This document shows positions 2,608 to 9,818 of a DNA stretch of 10,866 bases, in pieces; positions within the stretch are counted from its first letter, which is position 1, and the number at the start of each line of letters is the position of its first letter. The DNA is taken from IMG/VR virus record IMGVR_UViG_2579778899_000010, positions 1-10,866 of that record, one strand, 5' to 3'. Position numbers and translations under genes: made by a program. A model generated the notes under the pieces. It worked only from the letters and a program-made list of their open reading frames with translations. It was not told the DNA's origin and did no database searches. This DNA comes from a virus (Duplodnaviria; Heunggongvirae; Uroviricota; Caudoviricetes).

Positions 2608-2897
2608 TGAATATCGACACCACGATAACGATCGATACGGCCCTAAATACCGGTCTGGCACTTCTCGGTTGGTTTTACATCATGTTCAGTGCGGGGAAGT
2701 GGGCGGCCTCTGTTTTTCTAAAGCAGTGGGGAAAGCGCCGCAAACAGGAAAAACGCCAGAAAGCGTTGGAGGCGTTCTATGACGCATTTGAACTTAGCCG
2801 CATTGAGCCAGGCACAACAGCCAAGATAGCGACAAAAGGCGACCTGATGATAGTGATGTTCCGACAGGAGAGAGCAGAGAAAGGTGAATCAGCATGA
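2607..2897 (+). CDS. Small membrane protein (96 aa), one hydrophobic helix
   Basis: GTG at 2607 with SD AGGAGG at 2595-2600. Hydrophobic segment LALLGWFYIMFSAGKWAASVF is followed by a basic stretch KQWGKRRKQEKRQK. The track's 2529 start has no SD. Confidence 0.5.
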   Translation: MNIDTTITIDTALNTGLALLGWFYIMFSAGKWAASVFLKQWGKRRKQEKRQKALEAFYDAFELSRIEPGTTAKIATKGDLMIVMFRQERAEKGESA

Positions 2898-3643
2898 AAT
2901 TTTCTAAATTTTCTGAGTTGGTGAATCGTATTTTGTTGAATCGTATTTTGTCCAACAACCACAGCCATCGTCGCGATATGGATGTAACAATCGTTGTTCA
3001 TTCGCCTGGCAGCATTGGTTCAACACCTTCAGTTGAGGTTCAGTCAATTCACGCTGGTTTTGATTGGGATTCCGGGAAAGTGCTTATTTTCCCATCACAG
3101 CCACTGACCACGCTAACACCAGAACAGATTACTGATATCACTGATAGTGTGCGCAAAGGTCAGTCCTGGCACGCATATCAGGAATATAAAAATCATAAAG
3201 AGCAGTTGGAAAAATTGTCGATTGAGTTGGAATCAGCCAAAAATCACATAGCAGAACTGGAAGCCAAACCTGTAAGCCAAACTTACAAGTTAACTTTTGA
3301 GCAATGGCTGGAACAGCAGCATGACAAAATTGATGTTGATTGTGGATGTGTAAGTACTGAAATGCTTATGCACTGGATAAGGGTCGCGTATGAGGCTGGC
3401 AACTATCCGGTAACTCCGGATGGTTGGATAAGCTGTAGTGATCGAATGCCTGAAAAGGGCCAGAACGTGCTTATTTCGGTGAATTTCGATAGCTCTCTGG
3501 TTGAACCGCTAATATGCTCCGCACGCTATACCGGAAGCACCTTTCGGAGCGGAGATGCAACGATTAAGCCGGGTAATGGTATTGAGCAAGCAACTCACTG
3601 GATGCCACTACCAGAACCGCCGCAGGAGTCGAAGAGTGAATAA
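2894..3643 (+). CDS. DUF551-like phage protein (249 aa)
   Basis: ATG at 2894 after AAAGGTGA. The C-terminal portion GWISCSDRMPEKGQNVLIS...HWMPLPEPP matches what I recall of DUF551. An in-frame 15-bp tandem duplication lies near the 5' end. Confidence 0.65.
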   Translation: MKFSKFSELVNRILLNRILSNNHSHRRDMDVTIVVHSPGSIGSTPSVEVQSIHAGFDWDSGKVLIFPSQPLTTLTPEQITDITDSVRKGQSWHAYQEYKNHKEQLEKLSIELESAKNHIAELEAKPVSQTYKLTFEQWLEQQHDKIDVDCGCVSTEMLMHWIRVAYEAGNYPVTPDGWISCSDRMPEKGQNVLISVNFDSSLVEPLICSARYTGSTFRSGDATIKPGNGIEQATHWMPLPEPPQESKSE

Positions 3644-5315: not shown

Positions 5316-5603
5316 TTAATAAACAGCGCGAATATCGATGGTTGCGCCGCAGGCATGAGCATATTTAGCCAAAGTTTTCATACTTGCCCCTAAAGGATTG
5401 CTTTCCAGGCGGCTGATGGCTGACGGTCGCAACCCCATTCGTTCAGCCAGAGCTGATTTCGTTAAACCTGCTCTTTCCCTCATTTCGTATAACATTTCGA
5501 CCATCTCCAGCTCTTTGTCGGCCTCTTCATATCCTTTGACGGCTTCTGGAGTGTTGAGGAGTTTTTCTTTTACTTCGTTAAACGGGATGCCTTTCGCTTT
5601 CAT
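5316..5603 (-). CDS. HTH (XRE-family) antitoxin of a HigA-like type II TA pair (95 aa)
   Basis: Minus-strand ATG at 5603-5601 with SD AAGGAGA 7 nt upstream, overlapping the toxin stop by 1 nt. HTH segment LTKSALAERMGLRPSAISRLESN. Confidence 0.8.
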   Translation of the reverse strand: MKAKGIPFNEVKEKLLNTPEAVKGYEEADKELEMVEMLYEMRERAGLTKSALAERMGLRPSAISRLESNPLGASMKTLAKYAHACGATIDIRAVY

Positions 5604-5914
5604 CAGTTCATCTCCTTCAGGCGAGTTCTGGCGATTTCGATAGCCTTCACCGGTGTTTTCTGTGTCTTTTTTACAAATGCATGCAATAGATAAATTTCGT
5701 TACCAGTCGCGTAGGCGTACAGCGTTCTTGCGATGTTTTTATCCCCTACTCGTAGTTCAAAAAGCCCTCCACCTATTACACGGCTATGGGGCATCTTCAG
5801 TTTGTTGCCTTCCTTCTCCAGTCGCTCAATTAATCTGGTCATGCGACCTCGCAAATCATCTGGTAGTTCAAGCAGTTCATCCAGTGCTGCAGGGTGGGTT
5901 ATCACGTTAAACAT
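5603..5914 (-). CDS. RelE/ParE-superfamily toxin, HigB/Gp49-like (103 aa)
   Basis: Minus-strand ATG at 5914-5912 with GGAGG 7 nt upstream. Product MFNVITHPAALDELLELPDDLRGRMTRLIERL...GGLFELRVGDKNIARTLYAYATGNEIYLLHAFVKKTQKTP matches the RelE-fold Gp49/HigB pattern. Toxin-first order with a coupled HTH antitoxin. Confidence 0.8.
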   Translation of the reverse strand: MFNVITHPAALDELLELPDDLRGRMTRLIERLEKEGNKLKMPHSRVIGGGLFELRVGDKNIARTLYAYATGNEIYLLHAFVKKTQKTPVKAIEIARTRLKEMN

Positions 5915-6547: not shown

Positions 6548-6565
6548 GTGCGACCACGGTCGCAC
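6548..6565. repeat. Palindrome copy 2: GTGCGACC-AC-GGTCGCAC (central dinucleotide inverted relative to the other three; flanking T/A extend it to 20 bp, 6547-6566)
   Basis: Read directly. Immediately after the stop of the 6315..6542 gene and about 85 bp upstream of the intrinsic terminator. Confidence 0.9.
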
Positions 6566-7981: not shown

Positions 7982-8254
7982 ATGAAGATGGATGAACGAT
8001 ACAGCAGCGCATCTTATGGTAGTGCTGGTCTTACTGCGTTCTTTGCCAGCCTGTCATTGCAGGATTGGGGCTTCATTATCGGTGTCGCGTTCAGCATTAT
8101 CCTCGGTGTACTTACATACCGGCTCAATAAACGCGAGCAGATGAAGCGCACGAAGATATTGCAGGACATATTGGATAAAACTGATGCCAATAATATTTCC
8201 GCCACGGCGATGGTTATTGGTGAATTGGGAAAGAGAGCACCGAAGGAAATATGA
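7982..8254 (+). CDS. Holin, pinholin-like with two TMDs (90 aa), possible dual-start motif MKM
   Basis: ATG at 7982 and again at 7988. Two hydrophobic segments, [13 protein letters not shown] and [18 protein letters not shown], then a charged tail. Sits immediately upstream of, and overlapping, a SAR endolysin gene. Confidence 0.65.
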
Positions 8255-8817
8255 TGCAGTCATCATTACGCAAAGCTGTCGCAACTGCTATTGGTGGCGG
8301 GGCTATTGCCATAGCATCTGTGCTCATCTCTGGTCCGAGCGGCAACGATGGTCTGGAAGGTGTGAGACATAACCCCTACAAAGACATCGTTGGTGTATGG
8401 ACTGTATGTTACGGGCATACAGGAAAAGACATTATGCTCGGTAAAACGTATACCGAAGCAGAATGCAAAGCTCTCCTGAATAAAGACCTTGCTACTGTCG
8501 CCAGACAAATTAACCCGTACATCAAAGTCGATATACCGGAAACAACGCGTGGTGCTCTTTACTCGTTCGTTTACAACGTGGGTGCAGGCAATTTCAGAAC
8601 ATCGACACTTCTTCGCAAAATCAACCAGGGCGATATCAAAGGTGCATGTGATCAACTACGTCGCTGGACATATGCTGGCGGCAAGCAATGGAAAGGGCTG
8701 ATGACTCGCCGTGAGATTGAGCGTGAAGTCTGTTTGTGGGGCAGCAATGAGCAGAGTAACCGCAATTATCTCCGCACTGGTTATCTGCATCATCGTCTGC
8801 CTGTCGTGGGCTGTTAA
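8251..8817 (+). CDS. SAR-type endolysin (T4-lysozyme-like muramidase, GH24), with an apparently extended C-terminus (188 aa)
   Basis: N-terminal signal-anchor-release segment [26 protein letters not shown]. Catalytic region [25 protein letters not shown] carries the Glu/Asp/Thr arrangement. SD GAAGGAAAT precedes ATG 8251. The last 24 aa are the Rz leader read in another frame. Confidence 0.85.
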
Positions 8818-9208
8818 TCATTACCGTGATAACGCCATCGCCTACAAGGAGCAGCGCGACAAAAACGCCAGAGAGCTGAAGCTGGCGAACGCCACTATCA
8901 AAGACTTGCAGATCCGCCAGCGTGATGCAGCGGCGCTGGATGCCAAATACACGAAGGACTTAGCTGATGCCAAAAAGCAGCTTGATGATTTGCAGCGTTG
9001 TGTTCGCACTGGCAAGTGTGGGCTGCACCTCAACGCCAGATGTTCCGCGAACGGAGCGACCAGCACCGGCGGCCTGGGCGATGTTACCGGCCCCCGACTT
9101 ACTGACTCCGCTGAACGGGATTATTTCACCCTCAGAGAGCGAATCGTCACAGTGACGAAACAGGTTGGATATTTGCAGGAGTACATCAGGACGCAATGCC
9201 TGAATTAA
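8747..9208 (+). CDS. Rz: Rz i-spanin (153 aa)
   Basis: [49 protein letters not shown]... closely matches phage lambda Rz as I recall it: N-terminal TMD then a coiled-coil periplasmic domain, C-terminus ...YIRTQCLN. Confidence 0.85.
8967..9155 (+). CDS. Rz1: Rz1 o-spanin lipoprotein, nested within Rz in the +1 frame (62 aa)
   Basis: SD AAGGA 8 nt before ATG 8967. Signal peptide with lipobox-like ...ALASVGC, then a proline-rich mature part ending ...[11 protein letters not shown], as in lambda Rz1. Confidence 0.75.
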
Positions 9209-9580: not shown

Positions 9581-9598
9581 GTGCGACCGTGGTCGCAC
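9581..9598. repeat. Palindrome copy 3: GTGCGACC-GT-GGTCGCAC
   Basis: Read directly. 19 nt after the stop of the 9250..9561 gene, preceded by the boxA-like string TCTCTTTG (9564-9571). Confidence 0.9.
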
Positions 9599-9800: not shown

Positions 9801-9818
9801 GTGCGACCGTGGTCGCAC
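9801..9818. repeat. Palindrome copy 4: GTGCGACC-GT-GGTCGCAC
   Basis: Read directly. Exactly 220 bp from copy 3 (start to start), 23 nt upstream of ATG 9842. Confidence 0.9.

Follow-up and report, generated by a model that had tools for sequence, protein, structure and literature searches.

A holin, a signal-anchor-release (SAR) endolysin and a two-component spanin make up the standard scheme of such phage lysis cassettes (PMC6139136). Among the described endolysins closest to the one studied here are R21 of phage 21 and RrrD of DLP12, which in their canonical form are 165 aa long and end in ...CLWGQQ, with a TGA stop codon placed on the ATG of the Rz gene. An earlier reading of the present DNA, made from its letters alone (the sequence-only reading), had taken an end of this kind, with the stop overlapping the Rz ATG, to be canonical, and we found it in phage 21, in DLP12 rrrD, in the proteins of PDB entries 4ZPU and 3HDE, and in linear plasmid III of E. 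coli RL465. Alignment to R21/RrrD-type endolysins, which had been proposed as a check, likewise showed that the canonical C-terminus is ...CLWGQQ at residue 165.

The gene described here lies in a window (the whole stretch of DNA that was analysed) of 10,866 nt. The window endolysin lacks the canonical 165-aa CLWGQQ end with its stop on the Rz ATG; in contrast to R21 and RrrD, it carries a 24-residue tail and overlaps Rz by 71 nt. This protein is an ordinary, rare variant allele that arose from an inherited one-base deletion, and it implies no new system or mechanism.

The phage-plasmid and its endolysin gene

The window constitutes the entire contig AYQT01000129.1 of GCA_000503455.1. Its identity to phages PhiR46_1 and YDC107_1, of which YDC107_1 is classed as a Ravinvirus, was 98.4-98.6%, and its repressor/Q region showed ~74% DNA identity to N15 and phiKO2. 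As in an N15-type backbone, a replication protein gene adjoins its cB/cro/Q region, and its late region is lambda-like. The nearest complete record, RL465 plasmid III, is linear, 61.5 kb in length, and carries a CyRepA1 replication gene. Judged by the backbone within its 10.9 kb, the window comes from a linear E. coli phage-plasmid that is N15-like (Ravinvirus-like).

Several other features of this element were observed. A 16-bp near-palindrome, TGCGACCGTGGTCGCA, occurs in four copies (1339-1354, 6549-6564, 9582-9597 and 9802-9817), mostly intergenic, as compared to 0.01 expected by chance; these repeats may be akin to the sopC-like centromere inverted repeats that are dispersed in N15. On the minus strand, positions 5316-5914 encode a toxin of the RelE/ParE family (Gp49-like) together with an HTH antitoxin, and this pair is kept in all of the related phage-plasmids. 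Relative to RL465 plasmid III and to the near relatives L035 and L036, the window also has a 15-nt in-frame insertion (2922-2936) at the start of a DUF551-type ORF (2894-3643).

Pfam and PDB matches identified the endolysin gene (8254..8817, plus strand) as a frameshifted allele of the R21/RrrD type of SAR endolysin. Its start codon, ATG 8254, shares one base with the stop codon of the upstream holin gene (7982..8254, plus strand; 90 aa), as it does in phage 21, in RrrD, and in the PGAP annotation of relatives. The holin itself gave weak Pfam matches to the HP1 and P21 S holin families, both under the gathering score, and its counterparts in relatives carry the annotation 'phage holin family protein'. 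The sequence-only reading had described the endolysin as a 188-aa protein, a length that is obtained when counting from ATG 8251; from the homologous, annotated start at ATG 8254 the protein has 187 aa, and it was this 187-aa form that was matched in the protein look-up, while the 188-aa form had no exact match there.

Pfam family PF00959 (Phage_lysozyme, GH24) matched residues 34-156 over profile positions 3-125 of 125 (E = 7.6e-48), which corresponds to a full-length domain, and PDB entries 4ZPU (RrrD) and 3HDE (R21) matched up to residue 163-165 with E-values of 1e-103 to 1e-104. Residues E35, D44 and T50, the catalytic Glu-Asp-Thr in R21 numbering, were invariant across a 22-sequence alignment that included the window protein. 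Residues 8-27 form a Gly/Ala-rich, weakly hydrophobic N-terminal segment, which aligned with RrrD (4ZPU) and R21 (3HDE); by this alignment it is a SAR segment, and its insertion into and release from the membrane are predicted. The PF00959 domain, the SAR segment and E35, D44 and T50 all lie upstream of the frameshift. The missing canonical end is a defect at the level of the allele, and the gene still belongs to the R21/RrrD family.

A missing G at the endolysin/Rz junction

Read directly from the window, the sequence from position 8731 is TGT TTG TGG GGC AGC AAT GAG, in which the GGGG run occupies positions 8738-8741 on the plus strand. Comparison with RL465 plasmid III indicated that this run (G4) is a five-G tract (G5) minus one G. 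The tract doubles as a Shine-Dalgarno-like element of Rz. The same site reads GGGGG in RL465 plasmid III and in an O25b:H4 prophage, and GGGGT in phage 21. Over 958 nt, the RL465 plasmid and the window differed solely in GGGGG vs GGGG; with a relative this close (99.9% identity) and one defined nucleotide missing, chance is not at issue. The sequence-only reading had proposed that the frame is shifted by the G4 run and that an extra G would give TGG GGG CAG CAA TGA, which is precisely the sequence of RL465 plasmid III. It had also placed the stop at 8817, 71 nt within Rz, in agreement with both the ORF translation and the Rz ATG at 8747.

ORF translation and alignment showed that an out-of-frame tail of 24 codons plus TAA (8743..8817, plus strand) stands in place of the QQ-stop. 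Only the terminal QQ was lost and 24 unrelated residues were gained, a net change of +22 residues, and the new stop codon (TAA, 8815-8817) lies 68 nt downstream of the canonical one. The deletion site is 6 nt upstream of the Rz start (ATG 8747-8749), and the missing G abolishes the conserved ATGA stop/start overlap and leaves the 71-nt overlap of endolysin and Rz. An AlphaFold model of the protein, weak overall (20-sequence alignment, mean pLDDT 60), gave pLDDT values <50 at residues 165-187, which suggests a tail without confident structure. The 187-aa enzyme is probably still active, because the deletion leaves its GH24 domain, catalytic residues and SAR segment as they were, and because the family tolerates natural C-terminal tails of ~25 residues.

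Another explanation for the deletion would be prophage decay, which the sequence-only reading had raised as an option: the element would then be degenerating, and the frameshift would have inactivated the endolysin and made it a pseudogene. This would agree with the break in the conserved stop/start overlap and with the rarity of the allele, and a Shigella copy of the four-G form (L008) also has a truncated N-terminus. However, the frameshift removes no more than two residues at the very end of the protein, beyond a Pfam domain that extends to residue 156; the neighbouring ORFs of the window are of the same length as in relatives, and the terminase-to-tail modules (terminase, portal, capsid and tail genes) are complete in the carriers. 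The allele also persists in clones that are a few SNPs apart, and natural homologues have tails of like length. Decay thus appears improbable, and the option was not borne out.

Occurrence and origins of the four-G allele

A search of the public protein collection returned the exact 187-aa protein, listed there with several NCBI accessions and one UniRef entry, and 23 contigs encoding it were recovered from NCBI (various submitters), from two Logan SRA-run assemblies and from one ENA metagenome. The corresponding G5 protein, WP_001555421.1, was found in 2,468 index blocks as compared to these 23 contigs, and the G4 allele makes up roughly 1% or less of the contigs with this endolysin.

A homopolymer sequencing or assembly error, in which one of five Gs present in the DNA is missing from the contig, would also account for such a rare form, and some of its distribution is what an error would give. 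The site is a homopolymer, and G4 was seen in draft or short-read assemblies only. It was found at none of the 2,805 places at which the junction occurs in 5,426 complete E. coli genomes, and it was absent from 36 PLSDB records and from 13 metagenome contigs with this junction. Among more than 119 matching contigs in IMG/VR, G4 was confined to three different prophages of a single genome, which would be odd for biology, and the G4 form of the DLP12 gene was seen only in Logan contigs. Against this, the identical protein came from 23 contigs of differing submitters and assemblers, and every member of two tight clones has G4. In clone A (L010, L011, L013, L018 and L019), whose members differ from one another at 0-4 positions over 10-20 kb and from every sampled G5 locus at no fewer than 26, G4 was present in all five; both members of clone B (L012 and L014) have G4 and are identical over 13.3 kb, and there are 6 other similar places. 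Furthermore, among the 70 runs of at least 5 nt in the window, no other homopolymer-length change was found relative to its near relatives L035 and L036. When G4 versions of six other rrrD alleles were constructed in silico, all were absent from a collection of 15 billion proteins, which makes it unlikely that errors arise at this site at a general rate of ~1%. Similarly, in L009, one of the three IMG/VR prophages, the rrrD/Rz G deletion was the only indel in 3,067 bp relative to a 99.4% identical reference, despite 11 other runs of at least 5 nt. Taken together, we consider an error to be very unlikely. The sequence-only reading had left the choice between a real -1 indel and a homopolymer error; the real indel, as a variant allele, is the part that stood. 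It had also named close homologues with the same long form as evidence against its proposal. Such homologues were found, but they count against an error only, and the frameshift stands because they are the same deletion allele.

A scan of genome contigs for the G4 junction, in a collection with one genome per species and so with little power for E. coli alleles, returned three matches (unrelated MAGs and Moritella); these were rejected as chance 20-mers with no similarity to the cassette.

The G4 deletion was not confined to one lineage. It occurred on 4 of the 5 endolysin SNP haplotypes seen, three of which are common to G5 loci, and it was linked to two Rz alleles that are 134 positions apart. 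One G4 locus, L016, differed from the G5 locus L032 at 8 positions in 10.9 kb and from other G4 loci at 125-256. In all, G4 was present on at least 5 different backbones, each having near-identical G5 relatives; thus, the G5 tract looks like a recurrent slippage site at which the loss of one G is tolerated. This distribution requires either several independent deletions or short-patch recombination. Recurrent replication slippage at the G5 run, followed by clonal inheritance, is the simplest reading, although a single original deletion could have been spread among backbones by recombination instead of recurrent mutation.

Two further sets of G4 forms were noted. In IMG/VR genome 2896595138, a Shigella genome, the same G5-to-G4 deletion is present in three prophages (L007 680-699, L008 5302-5321 and L009 4493-4512). 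The proteins encoded there match the Shigella boydii entry WP_284525311.1, and the presence of the deletion in all three could be due to gene conversion, to selection or to an artefact specific to the site. A 191-aa protein (P0137) that is the G4 version of K-12 DLP12 RrrD was found in five Logan contigs and in zero NCBI assemblies, and may represent rare lab-strain mutations or read-level errors.

Rz expression and relation to known endolysins

The Rz i-spanin gene (8747..9208, plus strand; 153 aa; Pfam PF03245, E = 2e-38) is unaffected in frame, and its first 71 nt are now also translated as part of the endolysin reading frame. The exact Rz protein is present in public collections, and its N-terminus is hydrophobic. 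The Rz1 o-spanin lipoprotein gene (8967..9155, plus strand; PF06085, E = 7e-16) lies within Rz and is likewise unaffected by the deletion. The pair has the organization of a two-component embedded spanin, in which the i-spanin has an N-terminal TMD and its gene contains, in another frame, that of the lipoprotein o-spanin. Variation within Rz was observed as a mosaic patch at ~8975-9175, which spans the embedded Rz1 and has flanks that are 99% identical on both sides; the Rz alleles are 153 aa in the window and RL465 and 155 aa in most relatives, with 134 differing positions. At four of the G4 loci (L010, L014, L015 and L016, around 10494-10961), the gene caller lists Rz1 alone and omits Rz, presumably because the longer endolysin ORF now covers the first 71 nt of Rz.

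In the curated phage 21 record, the ribosome-binding site of the i-spanin is annotated on this G run. Predicted pairing with the anti-SD sequence at the 16S 3' end was weaker in G4 (-4.7 kcal/mol) than in G5 (-8.4 kcal/mol), and the predicted local mRNA folding was nearly unchanged between the two. We infer that stop/start coupling of endolysin and Rz would be lost in G4, and that Rz would be made from an independent and probably weaker initiation.

The explanation that we favour, and consider likely, is a real, heritable and recurrent slippage deletion in the lysis cassette of an N15-like phage-plasmid, with an active endolysin and weaker Rz. Replication slippage would have removed one G from the G5 tract upstream of Rz in such an E. 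coli element. The deletion shifts the last endolysin codons, replacing QQ with 24 residues, and at the same time removes the ATGA overlap and shortens the G run of the Rz Shine-Dalgarno element. With its domain, catalytic residues and SAR segment intact, the endolysin would remain active, and with Rz initiated on its own, probably less strongly, the allele would be near-neutral or mildly deleterious for lysis and could persist at ~1%.

We also considered whether the deletion might be adaptive. In that case, the G5 tract would be a recurrent, possibly reversible slippage site, whose -1 state weakens or uncouples the i-spanin and adds a tail to the SAR endolysin, thereby adjusting lysis as a contingency-like switch; phage-plasmids and prophages would then possess a heritable variant with low lysis or altered timing. 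The event does recur on several backbones and in other rrrD paralogues, and the G tract is also the Rz ribosome-binding site. However, homopolymers are known to have a higher indel rate, and the recurrence fits this rate without selection. Contingency loci have long homopolymers, usually of at least 7 nt, and both states are common within a clone; here the tract is 5 nt, short for such a locus, G4 amounts to ~1% or less, and clones A and B are uniformly G4. There were no compensatory or linked changes, and Rz was identical in G4 and G5 twins. We therefore give a lysis switch very little credence. With one G more than G5 (G6, +1), the endolysin would be fused in frame to Rz; such a version had no exact match in the one background searched. 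Programmed ribosomal frameshifting and transcriptional slippage were both rejected on sequence: U UUG UGG GGC lacks a canonical X XXY YYZ heptamer, the run has only 4-5 Gs, and the G5 relatives reach their canonical stop in the zero frame.

The main value of the slippage deletion is practical, in that a one-base slip in a short homopolymer yields a longer 'lysozyme' database entry and, as an annotation side effect, leads some gene callers to omit Rz. The G run at this junction is a recurrent indel site that should be checked when lambdoid lysis cassettes are annotated. The G4 allele also offers a natural test of whether the conserved stop/start overlap of endolysin and i-spanin matters for lysis.

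Endolysins with naturally long C-termini provide one comparison. A subfamily of SAR endolysins of 188-190 aa occurs in prophages of Citrobacter, Kluyvera, Enterobacter and Pseudescherichia (P0064, P0077, P0085, P0089, P0099, P0112, P0125, P0131, and the locus L043 at 2001-2573). Like the window allele, these natural long forms have an extension of similar length right after ...CLWG. In contrast, their tail (EKPQK..GPLNPG..PGVF) is conserved, is encoded by extra DNA, and is unrelated in sequence to the window tail. At L043, the sole locus with an Rz-type spanin that was checked, the stop of the long form overlaps the Rz start as TGATG. The retention of this overlap despite the long tail suggests that selection maintains the overlap as such and that Rz expression suffers to some extent in the G4 allele.

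Another close counterpart is WP_001555421.1, the 165-aa RrrD of N15-like E. coli phage-plasmids (named carriers: RL465 plasmid III, p13TMH22-2, and phages PhiR46_1 and YDC107_1), which is the same protein as that of the window up to G163 and has G5 at the junction; its phage-plasmids share the window backbone and the flanking methyltransferase, holin, Rz and DUF4406 genes. As compared to phage 21 R21 and DLP12 RrrD (PDB 3HDE, 3HDF and 4ZPU), the window protein is ~92-93% identical over residues 1-163, and it has in common with them the SAR segment, the GH24 fold family, E35, D44 and T50, and the gene order holin-endolysin-Rz/Rz1.
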